Assembly: GCA_037142615.1 (NCBI GenBank)
Contig: JBAXAI010000042.1
Location: 1-29,319, forward strand
DNA length: 29,319 nucleotides
Origin: Spirochaetales bacterium
Lineage (GTDB): Bacteria; Spirochaetota; Spirochaetia; JABEVK01
Reading direction: 5' to 3'
The notes beneath the pieces are model-generated. The model ran no database searches. It had not been told where the DNA came from and saw nothing but the letters and a program-made list of their open reading frames with translations. A program made the translations under genes and the position numbers. Position 1 is the stretch's first letter. Each line of letters begins with the position of its first letter. Shown one piece after another: positions 6,664 through 29,310 of this stretch.

Positions 6664-6706
6664 GCTTCCTCCTAGGAGGCTCCAGCGTGACAAGATCGTG
6701 CAGGCG

Positions 6707-9291: not shown

Positions 9292-10533
9292 ATGGATGCA
9301 CACCCACCTCGAAGGCGCCGGTCGCTGGTTCTTCTGTCGCTGGGGAACTCGCTCGACAACGCCGAAGGTGGCCTGGTCAACGCCTTGTTCCCCATGATCC
9401 GCACGTCTCTGGGGTTGGGCCTCGAGACGCTGGGCCTGCTTTCGGGCGTGGCGAGGCTTTCGCGCATGCTCGCGGCGCCCGTCTGGGCGTGGCTGGGCGA
9501 CCGGATGCCGCGCAAGCTGCTGCTGTTCCTGACCACCGGGGTGTGGAGCCTGTGGACGGTGGCTGCTGCGTTCTCGACCAGTTGGGATCAGCTCTTCTGG
9601 CTCTACACGCTTGGAGCCCTGGGCACTGTCGCCGCCGAGCCGCTGGTGCAGTCCATGCTTGCCGACCTGTACCCGGACGCCGAGCGGGGCCGGGCCTTCG
9701 GGGCCTCGCGCGGGGTGGCCGCGCTCGTGCTCGTGGCCTCGACGCCGCTCGTCGGGCTCTTGACGGGAACCCCCGACGGCTGGCGCTGGGGCATGGGGCT
9801 CATGGGTGGCCTAGGCTCGATCTCGGGCCTGCTCATCTTGCTGTTTGTGCCCGAACCGCGGCGCGAGCAGGCGTCACCCGAAGCCCCGAAGGTGACCTGG
9901 GTGCAGATTCGCGCCTTGGCGCGCGTGCGCACCCTGCTGCTCATGGTCCCCTCGGTGATGCTCAATACCAGCCTGGTGCTGGTCAGCTACGTCGTCACCT
10001 TCCTCGTCGACGTGCGGGGCTTGAGCAACGCGCAGGGCACGTGGGCCATGGCCGCCACCGCGCTGGGCTTTGTGTTCAGCTCGTTCGCCGGGGGGTGGCT
10101 GGGTGACCGTTTTGAGCGGTGGTGGCCCCGACGCGGGCGCATCTGGCTGATGCAGGGCTTCTTGCTCGCGTACGCCGCCACCAGCTTTCTGGCGCTGCAG
10201 GTGGCCTGGAGCGAGGTGTGGATGACCTACGCGGCGTTTGGATTGCTGGGCCTGGTGAGCGCCATCGGGTACTCGGGCTGCGTGCTCCCCATGATCGCGC
10301 GCGTCAGTCCGCCGGCGCTTCGCACCACGGTGTACGGCGTGCTGCTGTCGTTTGTGCAGGGCGCCAGCACGGCCGTTCTCAGTGTGGCGGTGGGTTACTT
10401 CTCGGTACTGTACGGGTTTGCCACCGTGCTGCTGTGGGTCGGCAGCATACCCTACCTCGTGAACGCCGTGCTGTGGTTCGGGTTCTGGAAGCTTTACCCG
10501 TCCGAGAGCAGTTCGACGCGCGACGAGATGTAG
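9292..10533 (+). CDS. MFS transporter
   Basis: About 12 hydrophobic segments; motif A-like WLGDRMPRK and repeat GWLGDRFER; YPDAERGRAFG. Confidence 0.88.
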   Translation: MDAHPPRRRRSLVLLSLGNSLDNAEGGLVNALFPMIRTSLGLGLETLGLLSGVARLSRMLAAPVWAWLGDRMPRKLLLFLTTGVWSLWTVAAAFSTSWDQLFWLYTLGALGTVAAEPLVQSMLADLYPDAERGRAFGASRGVAALVLVASTPLVGLLTGTPDGWRWGMGLMGGLGSISGLLILLFVPEPRREQASPEAPKVTWVQIRALARVRTLLLMVPSVMLNTSLVLVSYVVTFLVDVRGLSNAQGTWAMAATALGFVFSSFAGGWLGDRFERWWPRRGRIWLMQGFLLAYAATSFLALQVAWSEVWMTYAAFGLLGLVSAIGYSGCVLPMIARVSPPALRTTVYGVLLSFVQGASTAVLSVAVGYFSVLYGFATVLLWVGSIPYLVNAVLWFGFWKLYPSESSSTRDEM

Positions 10534-11558
10534 TCCAGCGATTCCCGGCGCAGCACCGAACGGTAGGCTCCCTCACCGTGCAGGCGCGGCGGCTTCGTAC
10601 CGCGGTAGTCGCCCAGCCGGTCCGAGCGGTCCGGCGACGTCCAGCTCACCAGCCCGAGGTGGCCGCTTTTCAGTTCCAACGAAGTGAACCCGCGCTTGCC
10701 CACCGCGCAGCCGGCGTTGAACAGGCAGGGCACCAGCATGTCGCCGTACACCCGCGACACCAGCGGCTGCGCCGTCTGCTGAGCCCGCAGGTAGTCGCGT
10801 CGCAGGTTACGTACCGAGCGCCGTATCCACGCCTTGCGCCCCTCGTCGGCCGCTGGAAAGTCCCGGCAAAGGCGCTCGATCTGAATGCCCAGCGACTCCT
10901 GCTTCGACAGCGACTCGAACAGGGGGCGGTGCGTGTGCCCCATCACCGAAAGAAGCTTCTTGCCGCGCGAGAACTCGTAGATGGCCTTCTCGAGCTTGAA
11001 CTTCTTTTGCGAGTCGTGGGCCACCGACGTGTTGCCGATGCCCAGGCTGTTGGCGAACAGCCGCAGGCTCCAGCCGATGGCCTGGTTGTAGCGCCCCGAA
11101 TTGGCCACGCCCGCCTGGTGCCCGTGGAAGACGAAGATGTCTTGGCCCGGCAGCTCGAGGATGAGGCTCTCGCCGTCGAAGTGATCGGTGTAGTACGGAT
11201 CACTCTGCTTTCCGGGGAGAATCTCGTGGTTGCCGATCAACCAGATGAGCTTGCCGCGGTCCCGGAAGCGGGCAAACAGGTCGTACACGGGCTTCCACGC
11301 GCGCACGATTTCGGCGCGCGGCACCCGCAGCAGTTCCTCGATATCACCGTTCAGAATCAGCGTGAACCCGCGGGGGAGGTAGTAGTGTTCGAGCGCGTCG
11401 ACAAACAAGGCACCGTTGCGCAGAAAGTCATCCTTGCGGTCGCCGCGGCCCATGTGCAGGTCGCTGAGAATGACAAAGCGCTCGCCACGCAGCACCTTGC
11501 GTCGGGGCGACGTCTGCCAAAGCGACTCGAGCCGCTCCTGCGAGGCCCCGAAACTCAA
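10494..11558 (-). CDS. Calcineurin-like metallophosphoesterase (LpxH/PlcP-like)
   Basis: SDLH, NGDIEE, GNHE, FHGH, GHTH metal motifs; TTG start overlaps the ugd TGA. Confidence 0.82.
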   Translation of the reverse strand: MSFGASQERLESLWQTSPRRKVLRGERFVILSDLHMGRGDRKDDFLRNGALFVDALEHYYLPRGFTLILNGDIEELLRVPRAEIVRAWKPVYDLFARFRDRGKLIWLIGNHEILPGKQSDPYYTDHFDGESLILELPGQDIFVFHGHQAGVANSGRYNQAIGWSLRLFANSLGIGNTSVAHDSQKKFKLEKAIYEFSRGKKLLSVMGHTHRPLFESLSKQESLGIQIERLCRDFPAADEGRKAWIRRSVRNLRRDYLRAQQTAQPLVSRVYGDMLVPCLFNAGCAVGKRGFTSLELKSGHLGLVSWTSPDRSDRLGDYRGTKPPRLHGEGAYRSVLRRESLDYISSRVELLSDG

Positions 11559-13032: not shown

Positions 13033-13107
13033 AAATACAAACGAAGATTGAGATTGGAAAAGATCGCGCCGCCCTAGACGCGGATGCGAAAAGACAAGGA
13101 GTACTGT

Positions 13108-13452
13108 ATGTCGAAACTGGACAAGAACCTTCAGGAAGCCAAGGCCTGGATCAAGAAGAAGGGCCCCGACTCTCCTGGCGCCGCTGCGGCCGTCCACGCT
13201 TTGGGTGCGTGGGAAGCCAAGGTGACGAAGGCCGAAGAGGCCAAGGCGAAGCTCGAGTCCGCGCGTGCAGAGCTCAAGACCGCTCGAAAAGCCCTTCTGC
13301 AGGCCGTCAAAGCCGCCAAGGACCTCAAGAAGGCCAAGCCCGCGAAGCCGGCCCCTGTGAAGGCAGCCCCCGCCAAGCCCGCCGCGCCGAAGAAGGCCGC
13401 CCCGAAGAAGGCGGCACCCAAGAAGGTTGCCCCCACCGAACCGAAGGCCTAG
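13108..13452 (+). CDS. Small basic protein with helical N-terminal part and histone H1-like PAK/PKKAA tail
   Basis: RBS AAGGAG before ATG 13108; strong AAG/GCC codon bias; tail KPAKPAPVKAAPAKPAAPKKAAPKKAAPKKVAP. Confidence 0.75.
   Translation: MSKLDKNLQEAKAWIKKKGPDSPGAAAAVHALGAWEAKVTKAEEAKAKLESARAELKTARKALLQAVKAAKDLKKAKPAKPAPVKAAPAKPAAPKKAAPKKAAPKKVAPTEPKA
13387..13431 (+). repeat. Three imperfect 15-bp coding tandem repeats (PKKAA)
   Basis: ccgaagaaggccgcc ccgaagaaggcggca cccaagaaggttgcc. Confidence 0.8.
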
Positions 13453-13991
13453 GCTCCCCGAAGTACGGTTCGGGCCCATTCGACCCAAACCCCGTCCACT
13501 TCGCGAAACAACGCAACGTGGTCGAGGGTCCACTGGGCCGAAGGGACGTCCACTCCCGCCAGCTGCCGCTCAAGGACGAGGAGCTGTTCGGGGGTCAGGT
13601 CGTGGTACGCCAGCGACACGTGTGGCTCGAAGGGTGCCTGCGGGCCCTTTTGCCACGCGGAGAACTCTAGCAGATGCCGGTGAACCCTCTCGAGGCCCGC
13701 CGACAGGGGAACGCGCCAGCCGGCCATGCCTCGGCGGGGTTCGCCGTAGGTGACGAAAAAGAGCCCATCGGTGGCCACAGAACAGGGCTGGCCTTTCCTG
13801 GCGTGCTCCAGAAACCGTTCGGCGACAGACTCTGCCTGGTCGTCCGGGCACACCAGCCCGGTTCGCAGCGTGAGGTGGGCCGGGTAGCGCAAGGCCTCGA
13901 ACGTCCCTAGGTTCCGGTTCCAGGTTTGCCGAAAAGCCTCCAGCGGGGCCCGCTGCGCCTCGGGTGGCACTGTGATGACGATGAACCTCAT
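13449..13991 (-). CDS. 2H phosphoesterase (2'-5' RNA ligase / cyclic phosphodiesterase fold)
   Basis: Two HxT/S motifs, PAHLTL and FEPHVSL; 180 aa; ATG 13991 overlaps the IMPase TGA; RBS GGAGG; it is the C-terminal part of ORF 13449..14702. Confidence 0.85.
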   Translation of the reverse strand: MRFIVITVPPEAQRAPLEAFRQTWNRNLGTFEALRYPAHLTLRTGLVCPDDQAESVAERFLEHARKGQPCSVATDGLFFVTYGEPRRGMAGWRVPLSAGLERVHRHLLEFSAWQKGPQAPFEPHVSLAYHDLTPEQLLVLERQLAGVDVPSAQWTLDHVALFREVDGVWVEWARTVLRGA

Positions 13992-14779
13992 GTCCAGGCC
14001 TCCACGAGCGAGGGAAAGGCGCCGCGGCCGGCGGCCAGCACGTGGTCGCCACCCTCGGCGCTCACGGAATGGTAATGGCCACCGGCCTCGAGGACAAGGT
14101 GGGCGCCCGCGGCGACGTCCCACGGCTGCAACGAACGCTGGGCGTGACCGACCAGCGACCCCTGGGCCACGTAGGCCAGATCGAGCGCTGCCGCTCCGTG
14201 GGAGCGCGTCTTGCGCGCCGACGATCCGATGCGTTCCAGAAAGCCCCGCATGTAGTGCTGATCGTCGGATCGCGAGCCCCGGCTGTGCGACAGAATGCCG
14301 CGGGCTAGTCCCTCCTCCGAAACGTGAAGGCGCCGTGCCCCGCACCAGGCTCCCTGGCCGTCGAGCGCCGAGAAGACTTGGCCGAGCAGGGGCGCCGCCA
14401 CGACCGAAGCCACCGGTCGGCCATAGCGCCACAGCGGATGCGTGCTTGCCGCGGTCCGGTGGTAGCAGGCCACCGACACACAGAACCACGGAAGGCGGTG
14501 ATGGTAGTTCACCGTGCCGTCCAACGGGTCTACGATCCACAGCCATTCGGCCTGGCCGTCGTCGGGCGGGCCGTCCTCTTCGAGGATTCCCTCCCCAGGA
14601 AACGAGCGCGACAGCGTGGCACGGATGAGATCTCCCGCTTCGCGGTCGGCCGTCAGGCTGAGGTCGTAGGTGCCCTTGAGCGTCACCTCGTGCTCGCTCC
14701 ACAGGGCGTTCTTCAGGTACTCCGCAGCGTGTCCTGCGGCCTCTTTCGCCGTGTGGAGCCGACGCTCAGGATCGGTCAA
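13988..14779 (-). CDS. Inositol monophosphatase (SuhB/FIG superfamily) sugar phosphatase
   Basis: TADREA, ILEE, WIVDPLDGTVNY, GAAALDLAYVAQG, QPWDVAAG; TTG start overlaps the phnE TGA. Confidence 0.9.
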   Translation of the reverse strand: MTDPERRLHTAKEAAGHAAEYLKNALWSEHEVTLKGTYDLSLTADREAGDLIRATLSRSFPGEGILEEDGPPDDGQAEWLWIVDPLDGTVNYHHRLPWFCVSVACYHRTAASTHPLWRYGRPVASVVAAPLLGQVFSALDGQGAWCGARRLHVSEEGLARGILSHSRGSRSDDQHYMRGFLERIGSSARKTRSHGAAALDLAYVAQGSLVGHAQRSLQPWDVAAGAHLVLEAGGHYHSVSAEGGDHVLAAGRGAFPSLVEAWT

Positions 14780-15585
14780 CTCCGGACTCCCGCGGAGTCG
14801 CGCAGGCGGGTGGCTCCCCATTCCAAGGCCACTGCAGTGGCCAGGATGCCCCAGGTCAGCATGCCCACCTCATGCAGGTTGAAGTAGAAGCCCGAGGCCA
14901 TAAACAGGTCAAATCCCACACCGCCGGCGCCCGCGGCCGCGCCCATGGCGACAGCGGTAACGAAGTTGATCTCGAACCGCAAGAAGGTCCACGACGTCAG
15001 GGCGGCCAGCGACGAGGGGAGGACGGCCTGGGTGACAATGGCCAGCCAGTCGGCCCCCGAGGCCTTGAGGGCCTCGAGAGTGCCGTCGTCGAGTTCTTCA
15101 AAGGACTCCGAGAACGCCTTGAGAAGGTAACCGAACGAGTGAAAGGTCATGCCCACGACGGCGGCGACGCTTCCGAGACCGGCACCGATGGCGAAAATGA
15201 GGACCCACAAGACGGTGGGAACCGCGCGCACGAAGGCGACGAAGGCCCGCAAGACCCAACCCAACCAGGCCGGTCCCAGGTTGCGCGCGGCGAAGAGCCC
15301 CAGGACGAGGGCCGGAAGCGCCCCGAGCACGGTGGTCAGAAGGCCGAGAGCCAAGGTGAACCCGAGGCCTTGCAACATCTCTGGCAGGGTGAAGTGTTCG
15401 GCGCCCGGCGTGAGGAACAGGATACCCAGGTCGTGACCGACCTTGGCGAAGGCCGCACCGAGGTCGAGGCCCCTGAGGCTGAGGACGAAGAACCCGGCCA
15501 CGGTCACCGAAAGCAGCACCGTGAGCGTGGCTCCCAAGGCCCAGGTATCGGCACCCCAGCGGCGCACCCGGATGCGGGGGCTCAC
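14776..15585 (-). CDS. phnE: Phosphonate ABC transporter permease (second copy)
   Basis: RAVPTVLWVLIF, EAA loop EALKASGA, TFLRFEIN, GAGGVG; GTG start overlaps the upstream TGA. Confidence 0.9.
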   Translation of the reverse strand: MSPRIRVRRWGADTWALGATLTVLLSVTVAGFFVLSLRGLDLGAAFAKVGHDLGILFLTPGAEHFTLPEMLQGLGFTLALGLLTTVLGALPALVLGLFAARNLGPAWLGWVLRAFVAFVRAVPTVLWVLIFAIGAGLGSVAAVVGMTFHSFGYLLKAFSESFEELDDGTLEALKASGADWLAIVTQAVLPSSLAALTSWTFLRFEINFVTAVAMGAAAGAGGVGFDLFMASGFYFNLHEVGMLTWGILATAVALEWGATRLRDSAGVRS

Positions 15586-16373
15586 AGAATCACCTTGCGC
15601 AGCGCGTTCGACACGGCTTCGAGGGCCAACACGACGATGACGATGCAGAGGGTGACCAGCGCCGCCGAGGGGTAGTTGAGGCTTTTGTAGTACAGATCGA
15701 AGCTGAACCCGATACCTGTGCCGGTGAGCAAGCCCACCAATGTGGCGCTCCGGATGTTGGTTTCGAGCATGAAGAGCATCCAGCTGGTGAGCGAAGGCAG
15801 CAGCGTGGGGATCACGGCTTGCGAAACCACCGTGCCCCAGGGCGCACCGGTAGCCCGCAGCCCTTCGACGGGCTCCGCCGCCGTCTCGTCGGTGATCTCG
15901 AGAAAGGAGCGCGTCAAGAAGCCCACGGATTCCAGCAAGAGGGCCAGCAGGCCCGTGACGTAGGTTTGGCCAAAGGCCAGCAAGAAGATCATGGCCCAAG
16001 CCACCACGGGGATGTTGCGTCCCAACGATCCGAGCGCCCGGACAAGGGGCGTGAAGACCGCGTGGGGGCGCGTGGTCCGGCTACCGAGCAGAGCCAGGCC
16101 GAAACTCACGACAGCCGCAAGAACCGTGGCCTGAACCGACACCACAACGGTTTCGCCCAGGCGGTTCAGGATCGAAGGCAGGTTGTTCCAGGCGCGTTCG
16201 TTGGGAAGGAAGTTGGCGCCCATCCAAGCAAAGGCGCGCGGAAACGACGCGACACCCTCGGCAAAGTCGAACCCGGTCAGAAGGGCCGAGCCCCACACCA
16301 GCACGAGCAGGGTGCCCAGAAGCCCCCAGAGCAGCAGGTTGCGGTCTCGGAAGACTTTCCCGACGCGGGTCAC
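15582..16373 (-). CDS. phnE: Phosphonate ABC transporter permease
   Basis: RNIPVVAWAMIF, VEGLRATGA, ETNIRSATLVG. Confidence 0.9.
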   Translation of the reverse strand: MTRVGKVFRDRNLLLWGLLGTLLVLVWGSALLTGFDFAEGVASFPRAFAWMGANFLPNERAWNNLPSILNRLGETVVVSVQATVLAAVVSFGLALLGSRTTRPHAVFTPLVRALGSLGRNIPVVAWAMIFLLAFGQTYVTGLLALLLESVGFLTRSFLEITDETAAEPVEGLRATGAPWGTVVSQAVIPTLLPSLTSWMLFMLETNIRSATLVGLLTGTGIGFSFDLYYKSLNYPSAALVTLCIVIVVLALEAVSNALRKVIL

Positions 16374-17143
16374 TCCTCCACCCCCTCTACCAGCAGATCC
16401 TCGTGGTTCTGCCCGTAGATGGCGGCAATCGTTTTCTTTTTGAGGTGCTTGGGCGCGTCGTCAAACTCGACCCGCCCCGCCCGGATGCCGACGATCCGGT
16501 CGGCGTACTTCATGGCCACCTCGACCTGGTGCAGGTTGACCACAATGGTGATGCCCTGCTCGTCGCAGATGCGACGCAGTTCGTCCATGATCACTTTGGA
16601 CGACGCCGGGTCGAGCGACGCGATGGGCTCGTCGCACAGGATGATGCGCGGATCCTGGATGAGCGCCCGGGCGATGCCCACGCGCTGCTTCTGCCCGCCC
16701 GACAAGCGGTCGCAGCGCTGGTGAGCCTGGCCCTCAAGGCCCAGATGCACCAGCAGTTCGAGGGCGCGTTCCTTTTCCGACTGCGAGTACAGGCCCAGTA
16801 GCCCGGCCCAGGCGCCCTTGAACCCCAGGCGCCCGTGCAGCACATTCTCGATCACGGTCAGCCGGGGGACAAGGTTGGAGTGCTGAAAAATCATTCCCAC
16901 CCGTGTTCGAAGGCTGCGGAGCCCCCGGCGGCGGAGGGTGGTGACCTCGATGTTGTCGACGCGGATCCGCCCGGTGGAAGGCTCCACCAAGCGGTTGATG
17001 CAGCGCAGCAGCGTCGACTTGCCGGCGCCCGAACGGCCGATGATGGCGACAAACTCGCCCTTTTTGACCGTCAGAGACACCGAACTCAACGCGGAGACCC
17101 CCCGGTAATCCTTGGAAAGATGTTCCACTTCGAGGATGTTCAT
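16370..17143 (-). CDS. phnC: Phosphonate ABC transporter ATP-binding protein
   Basis: GRSGAGKSTLLRCINRL, ENVLHGRL, LSGGQKQRV, CDEPIASLDP, NLHQV. Confidence 0.95.
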   Translation of the reverse strand: MNILEVEHLSKDYRGVSALSSVSLTVKKGEFVAIIGRSGAGKSTLLRCINRLVEPSTGRIRVDNIEVTTLRRRGLRSLRTRVGMIFQHSNLVPRLTVIENVLHGRLGFKGAWAGLLGLYSQSEKERALELLVHLGLEGQAHQRCDRLSGGQKQRVGIARALIQDPRIILCDEPIASLDPASSKVIMDELRRICDEQGITIVVNLHQVEVAMKYADRIVGIRAGRVEFDDAPKHLKKKTIAAIYGQNHEDLLVEGVEE

Positions 17144-17165: not shown

Positions 17166-18197
17166 CTAGTTGTTCAGCATGGCACGGATGGGATCCCACC
17201 AGGCGTTGCTCGCGGCGATGAAGTGGTTCTTGCCGTTTTGCTTGTTCAGTGCAGCGCCCTTGGTTCCCTTGGGCAGGAAGATCTGCGGATTCTGGGCGGT
17301 CGAGTCGGCCAGGAAGGCATCCTGCAGCGCCTTGAGCTGGGCGGCGGTGAACAGGTCGGTGTTGACGGCGATGGGGGCGTTGCGCACTTGGATGGCGGCG
17401 AGCACCGTGAACTGGGCACCGGCCAGGGTGTCGAAGGGAGCCGCGGCGCCCTGCTTGACCTGGTAGGTGGCGCCGACGGTGTTGGCCGTGCCCGAAATCA
17501 GGTCGAGGTAGCTGTCGACGTCGATGTCGTCCACGGCGCCCACATCGGCCTTGCCGGTGAGCACGTTGACCAGCGAGCCCTGGTGGCTCTGACCGAACAC
17601 CACGTTTCCGAAGAACTTGCCGGAACCGCCTTCCAGGAAGAGGTCCTCGACTTTCTTGTCGGCGAACTTCTCGGCCTTGCCGAAGGTGCTCTTGATCAGG
17701 TTCGAAGGAAACACGAAGCCCGAGGTCGAGCTGGTCGACACGAAGCTGAAGGTCTTGCCCTTGATGTTGTCGAGAACGTACTTGCCGTCCTTCATGTACA
17801 TCGAGGCGTTGTCGGCCTTCACGACGATGCGGCTGTAGTAGTAGGCGTCGTCGAGGGTGCCTGAGTCACCCGACGAGACCACCAGCGGCTGAACCTTGGG
17901 GTTCTTGGCCTGAGCCTGAAGAAAGCCCACGGCGCCGGGGTAGGCAATGGCGGCGTTGCCGGTGGCCAGGGCCTCGATGGCGATCACGTAGTCGGTGGTC
18001 AGCTTGTCGACGACGGGCCGTCCGGTGGCCTTCGACACCAGGTCGTTGATGGCCTGGCGGGCGGATTTCCAGTCCTCGCCCGAGTTGTTGGGGTACCAAA
18101 CCGCCACGATGGGCTTGGTGGTAGCTTCGGGAGTTCCGTTGGCCCACGCGCCAAGCGCGAGGGTTGCAAACAGAGCGGCGAGCGCAATCTTCTTCAT
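17166..18197 (-). CDS. phnD: Phosphonate ABC transporter substrate-binding protein
   Basis: Signal peptide; YYSRI, SSTSG, SHQGS, ADVGA motifs; directly upstream of phnC. Confidence 0.9.
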   Translation of the reverse strand: MKKIALAALFATLALGAWANGTPEATTKPIVAVWYPNNSGEDWKSARQAINDLVSKATGRPVVDKLTTDYVIAIEALATGNAAIAYPGAVGFLQAQAKNPKVQPLVVSSGDSGTLDDAYYYSRIVVKADNASMYMKDGKYVLDNIKGKTFSFVSTSSTSGFVFPSNLIKSTFGKAEKFADKKVEDLFLEGGSGKFFGNVVFGQSHQGSLVNVLTGKADVGAVDDIDVDSYLDLISGTANTVGATYQVKQGAAAPFDTLAGAQFTVLAAIQVRNAPIAVNTDLFTAAQLKALQDAFLADSTAQNPQIFLPKGTKGAALNKQNGKNHFIAASNAWWDPIRAMLNN

Positions 18198-18261: not shown

Positions 18262-18321
18262 GGTGAAGGGAAGATGAGCGTTGCTTTCAGAATCTTGTGT
18301 TTTGGGTGAGGAAGCGGTTAG
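18262..18321 (-). promoter_or_regulatory. Two PHO-box-like repeat pairs upstream of phnD (internal promoter)
   Basis: Minus strand CTAACC-GCTTC-CTCACC and CTCATC-TTCCC-TTCACC, each with 11-bp spacing. Confidence 0.7.
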
Positions 18322-19019
18322 GCCAGCTTTCCGCCGCTCATCGGGTACTCACGATCGCAGAGGGCGCCCATGAACTCGAGGTCGTGGAAGATGCCGAGCA
18401 TGGTCACGCCCTCGGCCTTGAGCTGCTCGAGCAGCACGCGCACGCGCTCTTTGGAGTGCTGGTCCAAGCTGGCGGTGGGTTCGTCGAGCAGCAGCAACCG
18501 GGGCTTTTTCACCATGGCGCGGGCGATGTTCAGGCGCAGTTTCTCGCCACCCGAGAAGGTGTTCACGTAGCTGTCCCACAGGCTGGCGTCGAGCTCAAAG
18601 TGCCGCAGCATGCGCTCGGCTTCGTCGTGGGCCTCGTCGGGACTGCCACCGCGGTCGAGCACCGAGTGTTCCAGAACTTGGCGGGCCGACGTACGAGGTA
18701 TGACGCCCAGGAATTGGCTGATGTAGCCCAGCTCGCGCTGGCGCAAGGCCAGCACCTGCCGGTCGCTGAGGTGACCCAGGTCGACGGGCCCCCATAGCGT
18801 TGACAGGTAGTCGAGCGTGCCCGTCTGCGGCAGGTAGGTGCGGTAGATGAGCTTGAGCACCGTCGACTTGCCGCTGCCGCTGCGGCCGGTGATGCCCACA
18901 AACTCGCCCTGGCCCACCGAGAACGACACGTCGCGGCAACCCTCCAGGTTCTTGCCCAGGGCATGAATGTGAAAGCCTTTGGTCAGGTTCTCGACCTTGA
19001 GTACGGTCGTGGGGCTCAT
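18318..19019 (-). CDS. phnL: C-P lyase ABC-type ATPase PhnL
   Basis: VENLTKGFHIH, GRSGSGKS, IYRTYLP, YISQFL..IPR, TFSGGEK, LDEPTASLD, GIFHD; ATGA overlap. Confidence 0.93.
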   Translation of the reverse strand: MSPTTVLKVENLTKGFHIHALGKNLEGCRDVSFSVGQGEFVGITGRSGSGKSTVLKLIYRTYLPQTGTLDYLSTLWGPVDLGHLSDRQVLALRQRELGYISQFLGVIPRTSARQVLEHSVLDRGGSPDEAHDEAERMLRHFELDASLWDSYVNTFSGGEKLRLNIARAMVKKPRLLLLDEPTASLDQHSKERVRVLLEQLKAEGVTMLGIFHDLEFMGALCDREYPMSGGKLA

Positions 19020-19633
19020 GACGGGGCCCACTTGTCGAGAAAGGCCTGCACATCGCCGCTGAAGTCGTCCAGTCGTTCTTTCAGGGTCTCGTGCGGCCAG
19101 TCCCACCACTGCAGCGCGACCAGCCGGCGCACGGTCTCGGCATCGAAGCGGGGGCGAAGCACGCGGGCCGGTACCCCCGCCACGATGGTGTAGGGGGCCA
19201 CATCCTTGGTCACCACCGCGCCCGACCCGATCACCGCGCCATCGCCGACGATGAGGCCGGGCATGAGCGTCGCGCCGTGGCCAATCCAGGTGTCGTTGCC
19301 TACGTGGGTGACTTGGCTGCGCCGCCACGCAAAAAAAGCCTCGTCGTCGCGGTCGGCCAGCTCGTACAGCCGGCGGCGGTAGGTGAAGTGGTGCAGGGTG
19401 GGGCGATCGAGCGGGTGCATGGTGGGCCCGATGCGCACCGAGGCGGCGATGTTGGCAAACTTGCCGATGACGCAGTTCTGGAAGATGCCGAAGGGGCCGG
19501 TGTAGCTGTAGTCGCCGAGCACGACATTCTCGAGCACGCTGTGCTCGCCGACTTCCGTCCAGGCGCCCAGTGTCGCTTCGGTCAGCGCCACCGAACCATG
19601 CACGGTGGGCCGCGGCGAAAGCGGGGCGCTCAC
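19016..19633 (-). CDS. Left-handed beta-helix (hexapeptide) acetyltransferase, phn-associated
   Basis: LGDYSY, IGKFANIA, HHFTYR, VGNDTWIGHGA, IVAGVPA, WWDW; GTGA overlap with phnM. Confidence 0.88.
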   Translation of the reverse strand: MSAPLSPRPTVHGSVALTEATLGAWTEVGEHSVLENVVLGDYSYTGPFGIFQNCVIGKFANIAASVRIGPTMHPLDRPTLHHFTYRRRLYELADRDDEAFFAWRRSQVTHVGNDTWIGHGATLMPGLIVGDGAVIGSGAVVTKDVAPYTIVAGVPARVLRPRFDAETVRRLVALQWWDWPHETLKERLDDFSGDVQAFLDKWAPS

Positions 19634-20799
19634 AAGCGGTAGCCCGTGCTCAGCAGTTGCCGCCCTTCGACGAGGGCATTGGCCACGTACGGGAACCCAT
19701 CCGCCAGCGTTCGGACCACGAGCACATCGGCCCGCTTGCCGACTTCGAGAGACCCGAGCTCGTTGCCCAGACCCACGGCCCGCGCGGGGTTGAGCGAGAC
19801 AAGCCGCGTCATCGCAGCGAGGGACAGGCCCTTCTCGTGGTGTAGCTGGAACACGGCGTGCAACAGCGACGCGGGGTAGTAGTCGCTGCACAGCACGTCA
19901 ACCGAACCCTGCACAATCGCCTCGGTGGCCGAAAGGTTGCCCGAGTGCGAGCCTCCCAACAAGACGTTGGGCGCCCCAGCCACGGTGTGAAGGCCGCGCC
20001 TTTTGGCTTCGGCCGCCACTTCGAGGGTGATGGGAAACTCGCTGATGGTGGAGCCCAGCGCTTGCACGACGTCGAGCTTCTCGACGGTGTCGTCGTCGTG
20101 GCTGGCCACGGCAATCCCGGCGGCGCGCGCCAGGGCGGCAATCTCCTGAAGCGTCTCGAAAGGAACTTTGGCCCTGTTCTGGCTTGTTTGGATGAGCGTG
20201 TCGGCCTCACCGTCGGCGAGCTTGCGGTAGCCCTTGAGAATGAGCTTGTACAGCTCCAGGTCACGGTACTGGCCTTGCCCCGGGCTGTGGTCCATGAAGC
20301 TCAAGAGGTGCACCTTGCCGTCGCGGATCAGGTCCTTGAGCTCGTCGACCCGTTCCAGGTTGTCGATCTCGAAACGGGCGTGGAAGCGGTGGCGGATCTG
20401 GTGGTCGTTGTGGTGGCTCTGGTGGATAAGGTCGATGAGTTGGCGCGAGTTCTCGGCCGAGCGTATGGGGTTGCTCCCGAAGTCGGTGCTGCCATAGAAG
20501 CTCAGCGAGTGGAACATGGTGGTGATGCCATGCGTGAGCAGTTCGCGTTCGGCCTCGCGAAGGCTGAGCCCGAAGCGCATCAGCGAGGTGGGGCGGGGCG
20601 CCGCCATGTGTTCGATATAGTCGGCGTGGATGTCGAGAAAGCCCGGCATTACCAGCGCGCCCGACGCATCGATGCGCTCGGCGTCGGTCTTCAGGTCACG
20701 GCCGATGGCGGTGATGCGCCCCCCCTCGAGGAGGACGTCGTGCTGTTCGAGCAGTGCGTCAGGACCGACCACGGTCCCGTTCTGAATCAAAATCGGCAT
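19630..20799 (-). CDS. phnM: Alpha-D-ribose 1-methylphosphonate 5-triphosphate diphosphatase
   Basis: PGFLDIHAD, GITTMFHSLS, MDHSPGQGQYR, ASHDD, SEFP, GAPNVLLGGSHSGN, SDYYP. Confidence 0.95.
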   Translation of the reverse strand: MPILIQNGTVVGPDALLEQHDVLLEGGRITAIGRDLKTDAERIDASGALVMPGFLDIHADYIEHMAAPRPTSLMRFGLSLREAERELLTHGITTMFHSLSFYGSTDFGSNPIRSAENSRQLIDLIHQSHHNDHQIRHRFHARFEIDNLERVDELKDLIRDGKVHLLSFMDHSPGQGQYRDLELYKLILKGYRKLADGEADTLIQTSQNRAKVPFETLQEIAALARAAGIAVASHDDDTVEKLDVVQALGSTISEFPITLEVAAEAKRRGLHTVAGAPNVLLGGSHSGNLSATEAIVQGSVDVLCSDYYPASLLHAVFQLHHEKGLSLAAMTRLVSLNPARAVGLGNELGSLEVGKRADVLVVRTLADGFPYVANALVEGRQLLSTGYRL

Positions 20800-20812
20800 A
20801 GCCTTCCTCACC

Positions 20813-21652
20813 TTACAAGAGCGATTGCACCAGTTCCTGGGTGTACGGGTGCTGGGGATCCTCGAGAATCTGGTCAGTCAAACCTTGCTCCACGACCCGG
20901 CCGTCGAGCATGACCAGGGTGCGGTCGGCCAGCATGCGGATGACACCCAGATCGTGGCTGACCAGCAGCATCCCCACCTGAAGTTCGCGTTTCAGGGCAC
21001 GGATCAGGTCGAGCACCTTGGCCTGCACTGAAAGGTCGAGACCCGTGGTCACCTCGTCGAGCAGAAGCAGCGGCGGCCGGTTCGAGAGTGCCTTGGCGAT
21101 CTGTACCCGCTGTTGCATGCCGCCCGAAAACCGCCGCGGCGCTTCCTTCCAGCGCTGCAAGGGCAAGTTGACGTGCTCGAGCAGTTCGCTGGCCCGGGCT
21201 TCCATCGAGCCTACCGAGCGCCCACCGGCCGCGATGAGCTTCTCGGCGATGTTGGCCAGCGCCGAGAAATCCATCTTGAGACCATCGGCCGGGTTCTGGT
21301 ACACCATGCCGAGCACCGTGTTGCGGATCTGGCGTCGGCGCTGGTCGCTGGCTTCGAGCACGTTCTCGCGGCCCTCACCCACGGCCGACAGGTAGACGGC
21401 GCCGCTGGTGGCTGGCTGGTCGAAGTACAAGCACTTCATCAGCGTCGACTTGCCGCTGCCCGACTCGCCCACGACGCCCACCACCTCGTTGGGCCGGACG
21501 TCGAGGCTGACGTCGCCCAACGCGTGCACGGTGCCGCAGCGGGTGCAGTAGTTCTTGCGCAGGTCGGGCTCGGGCCCGAGGCAACGCGAACAGCCGGGGC
21601 CGAAGCGGCGGCTGAGGTGTTCGACGGTGAGCAGGGGCGAAGGCTCACGCAT
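20813..21652 (-). CDS. phnK: C-P lyase ABC-type ATPase PhnK
   Basis: GESGSGKST, VYQNPADGL, FSGGMQQRVQIA, DEVTTGLDLSVQA, GLTDQILEDPQHPYTQ. Confidence 0.95.
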   Translation of the reverse strand: MREPSPLLTVEHLSRRFGPGCSRCLGPEPDLRKNYCTRCGTVHALGDVSLDVRPNEVVGVVGESGSGKSTLMKCLYFDQPATSGAVYLSAVGEGRENVLEASDQRRRQIRNTVLGMVYQNPADGLKMDFSALANIAEKLIAAGGRSVGSMEARASELLEHVNLPLQRWKEAPRRFSGGMQQRVQIAKALSNRPPLLLLDEVTTGLDLSVQAKVLDLIRALKRELQVGMLLVSHDLGVIRMLADRTLVMLDGRVVEQGLTDQILEDPQHPYTQELVQSLL

Positions 21653-22487
21653 GGGGTGTCCCCGCGTTGAGCCGTTCCAGGCAGTACCCGGTGTCGTTGC
21701 ACTGGTAGAGCGCCCCGCCGTCCTGGGGAAGTTCATCGAGGAAGACCCCCGTGGCGCCGCAAAGGCGGCAGGCCTTGCCCTCGAACCCCTCCACGCGGAA
21801 CGGCCGGTCGCCAAACGCGAGCGACGCGACCCGGGTAAAGGGCGGCACGGCGTAGATCTTCTTCTCGCGGCCAGCCCCCAGGAGGATGAGGGCCCGCGAG
21901 TGGTCCATCTTGGGGTTGTCGAACCGGGGGATGGGGCTGGGTGCCATGACGTAGCGGCCCCCCACGAGAACCGGGTGGTCGCTGCCCGTGGTGTACGCGC
22001 CATAGCGCTGCAACTCCTCGAACAGCATCAACCACGCGCCCGTGTAGTCGGCCTCGGCATGCAGGCGCTTGGTGGCCAATTCCGACGGCTCGATGGCCCG
22101 CAGCGGCTCGGGAATCGGCACCTGCAACACGAGAACTTGATCTTCGCGCAGCGGCGCCTCGGGGATGCGGTGGCGGCTCTGGATGAGGGTGGCTTCGGCG
22201 GTACGGTCGGTGGTGGTCACGCCGGTTGTCGAGCGCACCAGTTTCTTGATGCTCACCGCGTTCACCGACTCGTCGGCCCCCTGGTCGATCACCTTGAGCG
22301 TGTCGGCGCGGCCAATGAGCGACAGCGTGATCTGCAGGCCGCCGGTCCCCCAGCCGCGGGCGATGGGCATCTCGCGACTGGCGAACGGCGTTTGGTAGCC
22401 CGGGATGCAGACACTTTTCAGAATGGCCCGCCGGATCTCGCGCTTCGAGCCCTCGTCGAAGAACGCGTAGTTGTAGAGGCTCTTCAT
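21645..22487 (-). CDS. phnJ: C-P lyase radical SAM subunit PhnJ
   Basis: IPGYQ (glycyl-radical Gly), REMP...GWGTGG, LKVIDQG, IQSRHRIPE, PSPIPRFD, GAGREK, Cx2Cx19Cx5C. Confidence 0.97.
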   Translation of the reverse strand: MKSLYNYAFFDEGSKREIRRAILKSVCIPGYQTPFASREMPIARGWGTGGLQITLSLIGRADTLKVIDQGADESVNAVSIKKLVRSTTGVTTTDRTAEATLIQSRHRIPEAPLREDQVLVLQVPIPEPLRAIEPSELATKRLHAEADYTGAWLMLFEELQRYGAYTTGSDHPVLVGGRYVMAPSPIPRFDNPKMDHSRALILLGAGREKKIYAVPPFTRVASLAFGDRPFRVEGFEGKACRLCGATGVFLDELPQDGGALYQCNDTGYCLERLNAGTPHA

Positions 22488-23551
22488 GGCGACTTCCTCG
22501 AAGCCCGGACACTTTCGAGCTTGGACTGAAAGGTGACGTAGTGCGGCAGCTTAAGGTGGCTGATGAAGCCGGTGGCCTCGACCGAATCCACGTGCAGCAG
22601 GACAAACTCCTCGTCGGCGAGGGGGCCCCCCGGACCCTGGCCCTCGGCGGCGGCGCTGAGCACCTGGTCGAGCAGGGCCATTGCGATAGCCTTGGTCTCG
22701 TTGCGGCCGTAGCACAGTCCGTAACCAAGGTCGAACTGCAGGTCGGTGCGCCCCTCGCCCCGGGGCAGTTCCACCGGCACGAGCATCTCGACCTCGGTGA
22801 CCCGGATCTCGCCCAGGAAGTGATCGTCTTCGGGGTCGCCGTCCGACAACGGATCGGCCACCGTCACAGGGAGCCTCCCTACGCGGAGCTCGCCGACCGT
22901 CGGGTGCAAAGCCCCGTAGCCGCGAAGCGACGCGTAGCCGAGCGCGGTGACCGTCCCCGTTTGGCCACGCGCGAGGATCTGCAACCGTTCCGAGCGCTTG
23001 GCCGGGAACTCCAGGCTCTTCTTGGTCACATCGCCCGGTGCGCTGGTGTCCAGAAGCAAGGTGGGGAGCAGGTCGAGCTGTCGCAGGTAGTCCACCACCT
23101 TGGGGTAGGTGCCTGCGCCGTCTTGCGGCCCCAGGTTGCGAGCCAACGCAGCCAGCTGGGCTTCGACCTCGTTGAAGCGCTCGTCGTCGAACTCGATGAG
23201 GCGGTGGGAGTAATCGCTGGTGGCGCCCAGCAGTTGACCGCCGGGAATGTCCTTGAAGGCTGCCGAGATCCGGCGCTCGACCCACAGGTCGGACGGGTCG
23301 ATCACGCGCGTGGTGTGCAAGCGCGGCACCGTGGACCGGAAGGCGCGCAGCAGGAACACGGCTTCCTCGGGCGAGCCGTCGGCCTGCGCCACGGCGAGCT
23401 CGGCGATGTCGGGAGCGTACAGACTGGCCTCGGCCATCACCTGGTCGATGAGGGCCGCGGGACGACCGGCCTGGGCTTTGCGTTCACGGCGCCACAGCAG
23501 CAGCGAGGCTTCGATGGCGCGGGTTCCCCCCTTGACGGCGACGTAGGCCAC
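22484..23551 (-). CDS. phnI: C-P lyase core subunit PhnI
   Basis: YVAVKGG, EAVFLLRAFR, RRISAAFKDIPGGQLLG, HPTVGELRVG, GFISHLKLPHYVTFQS; GTG start with RBS. Confidence 0.96.
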   Translation of the reverse strand: MAYVAVKGGTRAIEASLLLWRRERKAQAGRPAALIDQVMAEASLYAPDIAELAVAQADGSPEEAVFLLRAFRSTVPRLHTTRVIDPSDLWVERRISAAFKDIPGGQLLGATSDYSHRLIEFDDERFNEVEAQLAALARNLGPQDGAGTYPKVVDYLRQLDLLPTLLLDTSAPGDVTKKSLEFPAKRSERLQILARGQTGTVTALGYASLRGYGALHPTVGELRVGRLPVTVADPLSDGDPEDDHFLGEIRVTEVEMLVPVELPRGEGRTDLQFDLGYGLCYGRNETKAIAMALLDQVLSAAAEGQGPGGPLADEEFVLLHVDSVEATGFISHLKLPHYVTFQSKLESVRASRKSP

Positions 23552-23552
23552 G

Positions 23553-24143
23553 TTAGGTCCCTCCCCGGGTCTGTGTGGTGCGGGGCAGGGCCAGCACTCG
23601 GCCCCGAGCGTCAAAAAAGGCCAGGTCGAGCCCGAGAGGAAACTCGGAAACCCGGGCGTTGCGGGCCGCCAGCCAGCGCTCGCCCGAAGGGAGGTGGCAA
23701 GTCAGGGGGTGTTCCAGGCCGGGCCCGGTGAGCGTGACCGGCGAACCCGTGTCCAGTTCGTCCACGCCCACCAGCACGGTGGCGCCCAAGTGCGGATCGA
23801 TGAGGGTGCCGGTCCGCGCCCGTTCGAGCACGCCGGCCAGCCTCGCATCGTCAAAGGTGGCGACCACCAGAAAGGCCGAAGCGGACGCCGGCGACGGCGC
23901 GCTGGCGCTCCACTCGGTCAAGAACCGCGTCACCTCCGCCTGATCCGACCAGTACGTGGTCTCGTTGTCGATGAGGGTGGCGGCGGCCAGCAGCAGACCC
24001 GCCGGCGCCGGCGTTGGCGGCAGAAGCGACCCCAAGCGTTCGGCAGTCGCCGCGAGGTCTACCAGCGTGCCTGGAAAGGTGAAGGCCCGGAGCAGACCCC
24101 GGAAGGCCAGCTGCACATCGTGCACGCGGTCGAAGGCTGCCAT
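23553..24143 (-). CDS. phnH: C-P lyase subunit PhnH
   Basis: QLAFRGLLRAFTFPG, TLIDNET, GTLIDPHLGAT, LTGPG, FPLGLD, ALPRTT. Confidence 0.93.
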   Translation of the reverse strand: MAAFDRVHDVQLAFRGLLRAFTFPGTLVDLAATAERLGSLLPPTPAPAGLLLAAATLIDNETTYWSDQAEVTRFLTEWSASAPSPASASAFLVVATFDDARLAGVLERARTGTLIDPHLGATVLVGVDELDTGSPVTLTGPGLEHPLTCHLPSGERWLAARNARVSEFPLGLDLAFFDARGRVLALPRTTQTRGGT

Positions 24144-24580
24144 CACGCACCGGTATCCATGGTCTGAAAGTCGACCCGGGTGGTTTCGAGGAGGCGGCGC
24201 TCGTCGGCCAGTCGTGCCTCGAGGGCGGTTCCCGCGTCGTCCAGCCGGCCGTTCCAACCTTCTGTGACGGGCAGACCGGCCCGGTAGGCGGCGTCGACCA
24301 CGGCGAGGTCTTCGGCGAGGTCCTCGTTCCAGCCCTTGACCAGGCCCAAACCCAACGTGCCCGAGACGCGAACCTTGCATTCCGAAACCAGCACTTCGCC
24401 CAAGTGGAAGACGCTACGACGCGCGGTTTCGAGCACCTGCGCCATCACGAGGCCCGCCCGGGCCGGTTCGAGAACCTCAACGAGGTGGAGGGCGCGGACC
24501 TCCTGCGCCAGTTCGCGCGCGAGCTCCGGGGGGCTGAGGACAAGGAGGCGGGTGCGTTCGCGCCGGGTAAGGACCGTCAT
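24143..24580 (-). CDS. phnG: C-P lyase subunit PhnG
   Basis: GLVMAQV, FHLGEVLVSEC, AVVDA, C-terminal TRVDFQTM. Confidence 0.93.
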   Translation of the reverse strand: MTVLTRRERTRLLVLSPPELARELAQEVRALHLVEVLEPARAGLVMAQVLETARRSVFHLGEVLVSECKVRVSGTLGLGLVKGWNEDLAEDLAVVDAAYRAGLPVTEGWNGRLDDAGTALEARLADERRLLETTRVDFQTMDTGA

Positions 24581-24611
24581 GCTCGCTAGTCTGCCTTCCG
24601 CGTTGGATGGG

Positions 24612-24663
24612 TTTCGTGAGCGACACATGAAAGTCTGTTGCCTTTTCGTTAGGAAACCATGAG
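24612..24663 (-). promoter_or_regulatory. PHO-box-like repeats upstream of phnG
   Basis: Minus strand CTCATG-GTTTC-CTAACG-AAAAG-GCAACA and TTCATG-TGTCG-CTCACG-AAA; CTAACGAAA and CTCACGAAA also occur upstream of phoX. Confidence 0.72.
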
Positions 24664-24677
24664 GGGTGTCGAGAGGC

Positions 24678-25439
24678 CTAGAACCCGGTGACGAACTTGA
24701 GTCCGGCAAGAACGAGGAGCAACGCCAAGAGCCGCAGAACCGCCTGCGCGTTCCAGCGGGTGGATGCGGCGCTTCCCACCGGCGCGCCCACCAGCACCCC
24801 CGCCACCAGACCGGCCAGCAACATGGGTGCCACCGCCAGCTCGGCTCGCCCCAGATGCAGGGCGAGAGCCAGGAGCGATCCCACGCCCACGATGAATTGC
24901 GTCGTCGCGGTGGCCTGGTCAATCCGGTAACGAAGGACGTACACCAGGAGCGGAAGAAACAGGAAGCCACCCCCAAGCGCAAAGAAGCCCGAAACGAACC
25001 CAATGCCCAGGCTGAGCAGGGTGCCCGTCAGCCACAGCAGGGCCGGAGGCTGCGTTTCGCGGGGCGCCGGCGCCGCTTGGAAGAACAACAAAATCGCCCC
25101 GGCAAAGAGCAGGGCCCCCAAGAGCAGGCGAAACACCGAAGCCTGGACCAAGGCTTGGGTCTGCGTGCCCAGCCACACCGTGGGGAGCGACACCAGGCCA
25201 TACGCCATACCGGTGCGGAGACGGACCCTTGCCTTCGTCAGCGCGAGGACGCTCCCAGAAAACGAGTTGAAGAACACGACGCACAATGATACCAGTGCCA
25301 GCGACTCGACACTCGCCTCGGGAAAGACAAGGAGGAGGATGGGCATCAAAAGAAAGCCCCCACCAATTCCGGTGAGGCTCCCCACAAAGCCCAGGACGAA
25401 GCCCAAGACGAGCCCGATCACGAGCAGTAGGATTGTCAC
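24678..25439 (-). CDS. TSUP (TauE/SafE) family membrane transporter
   Basis: Internal duplication GSLTGIGGGFLLMP / GFFALGGGFLFLP; very hydrophobic; RBS GGAGG. Confidence 0.85.
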   Translation of the reverse strand: MTILLLVIGLVLGFVLGFVGSLTGIGGGFLLMPILLLVFPEASVESLALVSLCVVFFNSFSGSVLALTKARVRLRTGMAYGLVSLPTVWLGTQTQALVQASVFRLLLGALLFAGAILLFFQAAPAPRETQPPALLWLTGTLLSLGIGFVSGFFALGGGFLFLPLLVYVLRYRIDQATATTQFIVGVGSLLALALHLGRAELAVAPMLLAGLVAGVLVGAPVGSAASTRWNAQAVLRLLALLLVLAGLKFVTGF

Positions 25440-25467
25440 GGTCCCTCCGGAGTGTTTCCGTGGAAAG

Positions 25468-26514
<1,047 letters not shown>

Positions 26515-28124: not shown

Positions 28125-28134
28125 CGACTCTTCC

Positions 28135-29223: not shown

Positions 29224-29310
29224 AGGTTCTCCTTTCGAGGTCGTGCCCAACCTAAGCGCCTGCCGCTAGCCCGATCTTCTCACGACGATAGAAACGGGGT
29301 GCGAGCCGTC

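Follow-up and report, generated by a model that had tools for sequence, protein, structure and literature searches.

The 29,319-nucleotide contig JBAXAI010000042.1 of a Spirochaetales bacterium, hereafter the window (the whole stretch of DNA that was analysed), carries a carbon-phosphorus (C-P) lyase operon whose last two genes encode a phosphatase of the inositol monophosphatase (IMPase) family and a 2H phosphoesterase. In the pathway known from Escherichia coli, the 5-phosphoribosyl 1,2-cyclic phosphate that PhnJ yields is opened by PhnP, and the resulting ribose 1,5-bisphosphate is converted by PhnN into phosphoribosyl pyrophosphate (PRPP), as outlined in PMC3463581 and PMC10574752. In the bacterium considered here, the 2H enzyme probably opens the cyclic phosphate and the IMPase yields ribose 5-phosphate and free inorganic phosphate (Pi), both together replacing PhnP and PhnN. 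The 2H enzyme taken alone is very likely an analogue of PhnP. The two genes form a pair which is conserved, is restricted to phn clusters and excludes PhnN; the two activities, the order in which they act and the regiochemistry are what we infer. As a putative non-orthologous two-enzyme replacement within a known pathway, the locus is well supported by its gene context, and every available in-silico test supported the interpretation given in the initial annotation of this DNA, which had proposed such a replacement.

The terminal gene pair and the missing PhnP and PhnN

The 2H gene (13449..13991, minus strand) is the last gene of the operon. It runs from an ATG at 13991 to a TAG at 13449-13451 and encodes a protein of 180 amino acids that resembles LigT, YjcG and the cyclic phosphodiesterases (CPDases), with matches to PF13563 (2.7e-10) and PF02834 (5.4e-8). 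The gene before it (13988..14779, minus strand) runs from a TTG at 14779 to a TGA at 13988-13990 and encodes the IMPase-family phosphatase of 263 amino acids (PF00459, 2.4e-46). The initial annotation described phnE, the IMPase gene and the 2H gene as chained by 4-nucleotide overlaps of starts and stops. Both overlaps are seen: TTGA (14779-14776) joins the phnE stop to the IMPase start, and ATGA (13991-13988) joins the IMPase stop to the 2H start. The former is likely and not proven, because 22 orthologues align from about the TTG onwards, yet an in-frame ATG at 14821, 42 nucleotides upstream of the TTG, is a possible alternative start. The motifs GGGAG and GGAGG, sited 7 nucleotides 5' of the IMPase and 2H starts, are good ribosome-binding sites.

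The 2H protein has two H-x-T/S motifs, H39-L-T41 and H124-V-S126, by which it belongs to the 2H superfamily. A word-seeded search of a 5.8-billion-cluster collection gave 25 proteins, the window's own included, as the whole family found. In the alignment of these 25 homologues H39, T41 and H124 are invariant within the H-x-T and H-x-S/T motifs. At E <= 0.01 PF13563 is matched by all 25 members, PF02834 by 24, the CPDase family PF07823 by 14 and PF06299 (DUF1045) by none. The window's own protein has no match to PF06299 at E <= 0.001 and matches no NCBIfam model. The AlphaFold (AF2) model of the protein, built on the family alignment, has a mean predicted local distance difference test (pLDDT) score of 96.3. 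Foldseek relates it to Bacillus subtilis YjcG (2D4G; template modelling (TM) score 0.75/0.80) and Arabidopsis CPDase (1JH6; 0.74), each with a probability of 1.00, and to E. coli LigT (0.58). By its similarity to these solved members, the model has the 2H fold, in which two lobes surround a cleft. A profile search of the PDB ranks the relatives alike, with YjcG (2D4G) at 5.5e-9 and the Arabidopsis cyclic phosphodiesterase (1FSI/1JH6) at 3.8e-5.

The IMPase scores 158.9 bits against PF00459 (criterion > 27) and is thereby a member of the IMPase superfamily. It falls below every curated equivalog: 98.6 versus 332 bits for NF008027 (SuhB type), 95.7 versus 275 bits for TIGR02067 (HisN), 87.5 versus 264 bits for NF009321 (FBPase/IMPase) and 61.2 versus 229 bits for TIGR01331 (CysQ). 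SuhB proteins are its closest relatives among the solved structures (2e-59), and CysQ is found at 1.7e-17. The genome from which the window comes has three IMPase-family genes in total, two of them besides the operon copy.

The initial annotation listed phnGHIJKLM and phnCDEE in the window with neither phnP nor phnN, and Pfam and NCBIfam searches gave the same coordinates and gene content; no PhnP (metallo-beta-lactamase) or PhnN gene was found by Pfam search among the window's proteins. The rest of the genome, which is 96.74% complete and consists of 76 contigs, was also searched for both enzymes, as had been suggested, and neither exceeds its curated cut-off (PhnP, TIGR03307, 272.25 bits; PhnN, TIGR02322, 156 bits). 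The best match to PhnP in this genome reaches 57.7 bits and lies on another contig, and PhnN gave no match among 63 candidates. The PHP-family cyclic phosphate dihydrolase (NF041661, cut-off 500 bits) has a best match of 88.7 bits in the genome, outside the pair, and neither the IMPase nor the 2H protein has a PHP domain. DUF1045 was not found in the genome either, which carries little weight as the control recovered this family in 0 of 14 control genomes.

Conservation of the pair and the slot beside the 2H gene

A scan for the conserved 2H motif in one genome per species, across 185,579 species, gave 33 loci, the content of which was determined by tblastn with the window's proteins. Most of the relatives are metagenome-assembled genomes (MAGs), so absences in them are provisional. 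The loci come mostly from Spirochaetota MAGs and also from Lentisphaerota, Planctomycetota, Myxococcota, Rokuibacteriota, Thermodesulfobacteriota and SAR324. Thirty of the 33 have phn genes at most 10 kb away from the 2H gene, and 24 have an IMPase gene directly upstream of it on the same strand. Thus, the homologues do occur beside phn genes, contrary to the pattern that the initial annotation had named as refuting it. The loci without phn genes in this range are L009, for which only 398 bases are available upstream of the 2H gene, L026 and L033.

The 24 loci with the pair belong to MAGs labelled Spirochaetota, Lentisphaerota, Planctomycetota, Myxococcota and Rokuibacteriota. The place of the pair in the cluster varies: it follows the hexapeptide transferase gene in 15 loci, phnM in five, phnL in two and phnE in one, and precedes phnG in one. 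The 4-nucleotide overlap of the IMPase stop with the 2H start is present in at least 10 of the 24, as counted by a first-start rule that elsewhere picks an earlier start. The adjacency of the 2H and IMPase genes is far beyond chance, and the two genes constitute a conserved module in at least five phyla.

Some loci show further peculiarities. In a SAR324 MAG (L026, 9965-11506) a divergent member of the IMPase family (PF00459, 4.8e-27) is encoded next to the 2H gene and convergent with it, and the surrounding 10 kb contain no phn genes. In two long-contig MAGs (L010 and L017) phnI, phnJ, phnM, phnC and the IMPase gene appear split into two frames, and these are probably assembly frameshifts and not pseudogenes. 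An apparent fusion frame of 564 amino acids at L017 was rejected, being a frameshifted IMPase in the assembly with two tblastn pieces in different frames. Comparison of the 2H alignment with proteins of 367-2000 amino acids gave no fused 2H-IMPase protein, which is weak evidence.

Where no IMPase adjoins the 2H gene of a phn cluster, the slot directly upstream may hold another enzyme. In L018 and L038 it holds PhnN, with 201.4 and 193.9 bits against the cut-off of 156. In L012 it is occupied by a PHP protein that scores 200.8 bits to the cyclic phosphate dihydrolase (cut-off 500) and 167.6 bits to 3',5'-nucleoside bisphosphate phosphatase, and in L036 by an AP_endonuc_2 TIM-barrel protein. In L027 phnM stands directly upstream, and in L008 an unrelated binding-protein gene on the opposite strand. 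The 2H gene of L008 (10001-10549, genome G002) is 44% identical to that of the window and stands alone, convergent with phnE.

The initial annotation proposed profiling of the pair against phnP and phnN, and the outcome is as expected of a replacement of PhnN: the IMPase and PhnN share the slot and exclude each other. In a whole-genome search PhnN exceeds its cut-off in two of the 33 genomes, which are exactly those of L018 and L038. In these two the phn-IMPase profile reaches only 152.5 and 157.2 bits, which is the range of housekeeping enzymes, while phn-linked members score at least 259. PhnP exceeds its cut-off in none of the 33 genomes, the best score being 119.7 bits. The 2H tree has 32 rows and leaves out the truncated L038 and L039. 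In it the PhnN-linked protein of L018 groups with six IMPase-linked 2H proteins from other phyla, with a support of 93 in the Shimodaira-Hasegawa-like approximate likelihood-ratio test (SH-aLRT). PhnN and the IMPase are alternatives in one position beside the same 2H family and are mutually exclusive at the genome level.

The phn-linked IMPases also differ from the housekeeping ones by sequence. An alignment of 23 of them was made from the window and 22 of the 24 loci, with L010 (short ORF, open reading frame) and L017 (frameshifted) omitted. E68, DPLDG 84-88 and WD 220-221 are invariant in it; they correspond to the metal-binding Glu, the DPxDGT motif and the WD motif of inositol monophosphatases. 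Specific to the phn type are the invariants C100, C105, K190, R192 and Q214. Relative to the SuhB structures, K190 aligns with Asp and Q214 with Glu, and the phn clade has an insertion after the FC..C segment. In an IMPase tree of 56 rows the 23 2H-linked proteins and six further IMPases form a 29-row clade (SH-aLRT 93), which excludes all 25 housekeeping IMPases and the window genome's own C17 paralogue. Of its members, 26 are phn-linked (one at a contig end). These include L092 and L091, which stand behind a PHP dihydrolase-like gene, and L095 (1351-2241), flanked by phnE and phnM on another contig of the genome that holds L012.

A sample of 401 genomes of the window's phylum was searched with the phn-IMPase profile. 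Six genomes reach at least 284 bits, a truncated seventh match has 230.7 and the rest have at most 229. Among the six, a 2H gene lies near the IMPase gene only in the window's own genome, which means that the clade is not strictly bound to the 2H gene. In G100 the order is phnM, hexapeptide transferase, PHP dihydrolase-like gene and IMPase, and in G173 the PHP dihydrolase-like gene and the IMPase gene stand at a contig end. In G077, G180 and G035, genomes with no PhnJ match, the clade IMPase has a different neighbourhood. These three genomes are low in GC, and at their loci (L090, 9922-13856; L093, 9991-14018; L094, 10011-14018) three conserved genes (about 475-518, 255-266 and 278-285 amino acids) come after the IMPase gene. 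The set gave no Pfam match in either L090 or L094 and no NCBIfam match in L090.

PhnJ is present in 11 of the 401 genomes, and in none of these 11 does PhnP or PhnN exceed its cut-off. Three genomes of family f43 have a PHP dihydrolase-like gene (181-223 bits). In family f39 an AP_endonuc_2 TIM-barrel gene stands some 3 kb downstream of phnJ in all seven genomes, and in five of them a 2H gene of the family described here directly follows it; the TIM-barrel proteins of G172 and L036 share 69% identity. Every C-P lyase cluster in the sample of 401 genomes ends non-canonically, and the 2H and IMPase pair is one of several combinations.

The TIM-barrel gene is part of a second non-canonical end module, which consists of phnM, AP_endonuc_2 (a xylose isomerase-like TIM barrel), the 2H gene and the hexapeptide transferase gene (L100, that is G172, 13580-15142; L036, 9025-10555). 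Two g73 genomes seemingly have the TIM-barrel gene without a 2H gene, and the TIM-barrel protein of L036 has a weak match (E 1.8e-4) to the model of the cobamide phosphodiesterase CbiR. PHP proteins related to the dihydrolase (173-223 bits, cut-off 500) are likewise met in phn clusters with varied partners: with the phn-type IMPase in L092 (1980-3639) and L091 (5256-6798), with the 2H gene in L012 (9097-10477) and alone in L101 (4669-5523). The parts of the exit module are mixed in nature, since such PHP genes adjoin both the phn-type IMPase and the 2H gene.

Proposed pathway, rival explanations and known systems

In the proposed route, PhnJ leaves the phosphorus of the phosphonate as 5-phosphoribosyl 1,2-cyclic phosphate, and the 2H enzyme would open the ring of this diester, with ribose 1,5-bisphosphate as the most likely product. 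The IMPase would then hydrolyse one phosphate monoester of the ribose bisphosphate to give ribose 5-phosphate and free Pi with no ATP. Removal of the 1-phosphate from the 1,5-isomer is favoured, with the 2,5-isomer as substrate or removal of the 5-phosphate as alternatives. Ribose 1,5-bisphosphate is the predicted product of the 2H enzyme because the same 2H family pairs with a genuine PhnN in two genomes. The IMPase is expected to act on the same intermediate as PhnN, since the IMPase and PhnN alternate in one slot beside the 2H gene.

Several points weigh against this two-step route. The support for it comes from gene context throughout. IMPase-fold enzymes are best known for acting on alcohol phosphate esters, and the phn-type clade would have to hydrolyse an anomeric 1-phosphate. 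Six phn-linked 2H loci (L008, L012, L018, L027, L036 and L038) lack an adjacent IMPase gene. In the genome of L008 there is neither a match to the phn-IMPase profile at E <= 1e-20 nor a PhnN over the cut-off, which suggests that neither partner is indispensable to the 2H enzyme. Three of the 29 clade members (L090, L093 and L094) come from genomes with no PhnJ match, and the activity of the clade is therefore not tied to C-P lyase alone. In several of the 33 genomes other contigs encode metallo-beta-lactamase proteins that match the PhnP model at full length with 84-120 bits, below the cut-off of 272, so that some relatives may have a distant PhnP-like enzyme. Finally, both trees are quick trees with SH-aLRT as the only support.

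The same logic could operate with another regiochemistry: the 2H enzyme would open the ring to ribose 2,5-bisphosphate, and the IMPase, acting like a 3'(2'),5'-bisphosphate nucleotidase, would remove the 2-phosphate. The IMPase superfamily does include CysQ-type 3'(2'),5'-bisphosphate nucleotidases, to which the similarity is weak (61.2 bits). The PHP protein in the slot of L012 is akin both to the cyclic phosphate dihydrolase and to 3',5'-nucleoside bisphosphate phosphatase, and the PHP enzyme reportedly passes through a 2,5-bisphosphate intermediate (Ghodge et al. 2013). Yet the 2H family is paired in two genomes with PhnN, whose substrate is ribose 1,5-bisphosphate, and among the solved structures the IMPase is nearer to SuhB than to CysQ. 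Furthermore, plant and yeast CPDases of the 2H superfamily open ADP-ribose 1'',2''-cyclic phosphate (Appr>p) to the 1''-phosphate. The route through the 2,5-isomer is thus considered unlikely.

It could also be supposed that the pathway includes the 2H enzyme alone, as an analogue of PhnP. The IMPase would then be a co-expressed scavenging phosphatase of the Pho type or another sugar phosphate enzyme, and unspecific enzymes would handle the ribose bisphosphate. The three clade members in genomes without PhnJ, the solitary 2H gene of L008 and the other phosphorus-scavenging genes of the window, such as the PhoX-like gene at 4792-6693, are in line with this supposition. A loose partner, however, would not keep its adjacency in 24 of 33 loci and at least five phyla, with 4-nucleotide overlaps, as the pair moves from one place in the cluster to another, nor would it exclude PhnN so exactly. 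The IMPase and 2H trees moreover agree in their main groupings, and a role for the 2H enzyme alone is accordingly given a low probability. That the pair has nothing to do with phosphonates, being a system for RNA repair or for ADP-ribose cyclic phosphate (LigT/CPDase), or that the IMPase is a housekeeping SuhB, HisN or CysQ, is suggested by the name '2'-5' RNA ligase' of the Pfam families that the 2H protein matches and by the SuhB proteins as the closest solved IMPases, but it is very improbable given that 30 of the 33 2H loci lie in phn clusters, that the genome has two other IMPase-family genes, of which the C17 copy groups with housekeeping enzymes, and that the IMPase is far below all curated IMPase equivalog cut-offs.

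The proposed two-step route can be compared with several known systems. PhnP and PhnN of E. coli hold the same place in the pathway, where they process the 5-phosphoribosyl 1,2-cyclic phosphate made by PhnJ (PMC3463581, PMC10574752), and the 2H enzyme, given its pairing with PhnN in L018 and L038, is expected to form the product that PhnP forms. The folds are unrelated: 2H in place of the beta-lactamase fold of PhnP, and IMPase in place of the P-loop kinase PhnN. Unlike PhnN, which forms PRPP at the expense of ATP, the IMPase would hydrolyse its substrate to ribose 5-phosphate and Pi.

As the initial annotation stated, other substitutes for PhnP are known, both of the 2H and of the PHP kind (PMC3840354, PMC10574752, PMC11656708, PMC8774927). 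A DUF1045 or 'RcsF' protein in phn operons without phnP has been proposed to hydrolyse the cyclic phosphate (PMC3840354, PMC10574752). It too is a 2H-superfamily protein of C-P lyase clusters lacking phnP. It differs from the present one in belonging to another Pfam family (PF06299), and the passages on it in these papers mention no phosphatase partner. The phnPP route leads from the cyclic phosphate to ribose 5-phosphate (PMC8774927), PhnPP being a PHP enzyme that cleaves both ester bonds (PMC11656708). Thus, PhnPP/Elen0235 (EC 3.1.4.57) carries out the same net chemistry as is predicted here, giving ribose 5-phosphate and Pi without ATP (PMC8774927, PMC11656708). In PhnPP one PHP enzyme performs both hydrolyses, whereas those predicted here are divided between two enzymes, neither of the PHP fold.

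The closest solved relatives of the 2H protein, in sequence and in fold, are the plant and yeast CPDase (1FSI/1JH6) and YjcG (2D4G). The substrate of the plant CPDase also carries a ribose 1,2-cyclic phosphate, and the plant and yeast enzymes dispose of a by-product of tRNA splicing. However, these proteins are only 14-17% identical to the 2H protein and are not linked to phn genes. As for the IMPase, the SuhB type is its closest solved relative and has the metal-binding motifs in common with it, while the score far under the SuhB cut-off, the invariants of its own, the insertion and the separate clade set the phn type apart.

A 2H substitute for PhnP and a hydrolytic exit from the pathway (PhnPP) are therefore already known. 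New here, provisionally, are this 2H family and the IMPase step. The initial annotation knew of no description of the latter, and no paper linking an IMPase to C-P lyase was found; nor was this LigT/CPDase-like 2H family found in print as a phn enzyme. Both negative results are provisional, most subscription journals lying outside the search.

The surrounding operon and the meaning of the module

The base composition of the window is about 62-73% GC in 1-kb windows. On the minus strand the genes follow one another in the order aminoethylphosphonate-type ABC transporter, TauE-family membrane protein, phnGHIJK, phnM, TIGR03308 transferase, phnL, phnDC, two phnE genes, IMPase and 2H. The C-P lyase set phnG, H, I, J, K, L and M is complete on this one strand at 18318-24628. 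It begins with phnG (24143..24628; PF06754, 6.8e-26), phnH (23553..24146; PF05845, 3.8e-34) and phnI (22484..23551; PF05861, 1.3e-120), the starts of all three being approximate. These are followed by phnJ (21645..22487; PF06007, 3.5e-133), the C-P bond-cleaving subunit and source of the cyclic phosphate, by phnK (20813..21652, start approximate; TIGR02323, 2.4e-66) and by phnM (19630..20799, start approximate; NF011990, 475.7 bits; TIGR02318, 421.6 bits). The phosphonate-associated hexapeptide-repeat transferase gene (19016..19633, start approximate; TIGR03308, 269.8 bits, above the cut-off) separates phnM from phnL. Most related clusters have it too, often as the gene just before the IMPase gene. 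The gene phnL (18318..19019; TIGR02324, 2e-69) has an approximate start at ATG 19019.

The genes of the phosphonate transporter come next on the same strand: phnD for the phosphonate-binding protein (17166..18197; PF12974, 8.2e-35), phnC for the ABC ATPase (16370..17143; TIGR02315, 345.5 bits, above the cut-off), the first phnE permease gene (15582..16373; TIGR01097, 2.9e-62) and the second (14776..15585, GTG start at 15585; TIGR01097, 3e-51). At the other end of the operon, directly upstream of phnG, the minus-strand region 24678-29250 holds a second ABC transporter (25468-29250) with two permeases and a binding protein, together with a TauE/SafE-family membrane protein. This transporter resembles the 2-aminoethylphosphonate systems, and its ATPase scores 411.6 bits to PhnT2, under the cut-off. 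The phn operon may import two classes of phosphonates.

Downstream, the 2H gene closes the operon, since a convergent plus-strand ORF ends at 13452. This ORF (13084-13452) overlaps the stop of the 2H gene by 4 nucleotides and encodes 122 amino acids rich in Lys and Ala, with no Pfam or NCBIfam match. Its composition would allow a histone-like or nucleoid protein, the alternative being a spurious ORF in GC-rich DNA. No more than 10 kb away from the operon, the minus strand also carries genes for a PhoX-like alkaline phosphatase (4792-6693; PF05787, 1.8e-22) and a calcineurin-like metallophosphoesterase (10494-11558), and this part of the genome may serve as an island for phosphorus scavenging.

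When the use of phosphonates in soils, sediments and oceans is surveyed, genomes are scored for phnP, phnN or phnPP. Such surveys would regard these pathways as incomplete, because none of the 11 PhnJ-positive genomes of the phylum sample has a PhnP or PhnN over the cut-off. The 2H and IMPase module offers two new marker genes for this purpose. It would also represent a new enzyme activity for the IMPase fold. Both predicted enzymes are small soluble proteins, and their substrates are known.

A wider generalisation can be put forward tentatively, with doubt slightly outweighing confidence. According to it, the end of the C-P lyase pathway would be modular, combining a ring opener (this 2H family or a PHP enzyme) with the dedicated IMPase clade, PhnN, a PHP phosphatase or the AP_endonuc_2 TIM barrel, and the phn-type IMPase would be a hitherto unrecognised ribose 1,5-bisphosphate 1-phosphatase. 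Without PhnP, PhnN or ATP, free Pi might then be released from phosphonates in many anaerobic and uncultured lineages, among them all 11 PhnJ-positive genomes in the sample of 401.

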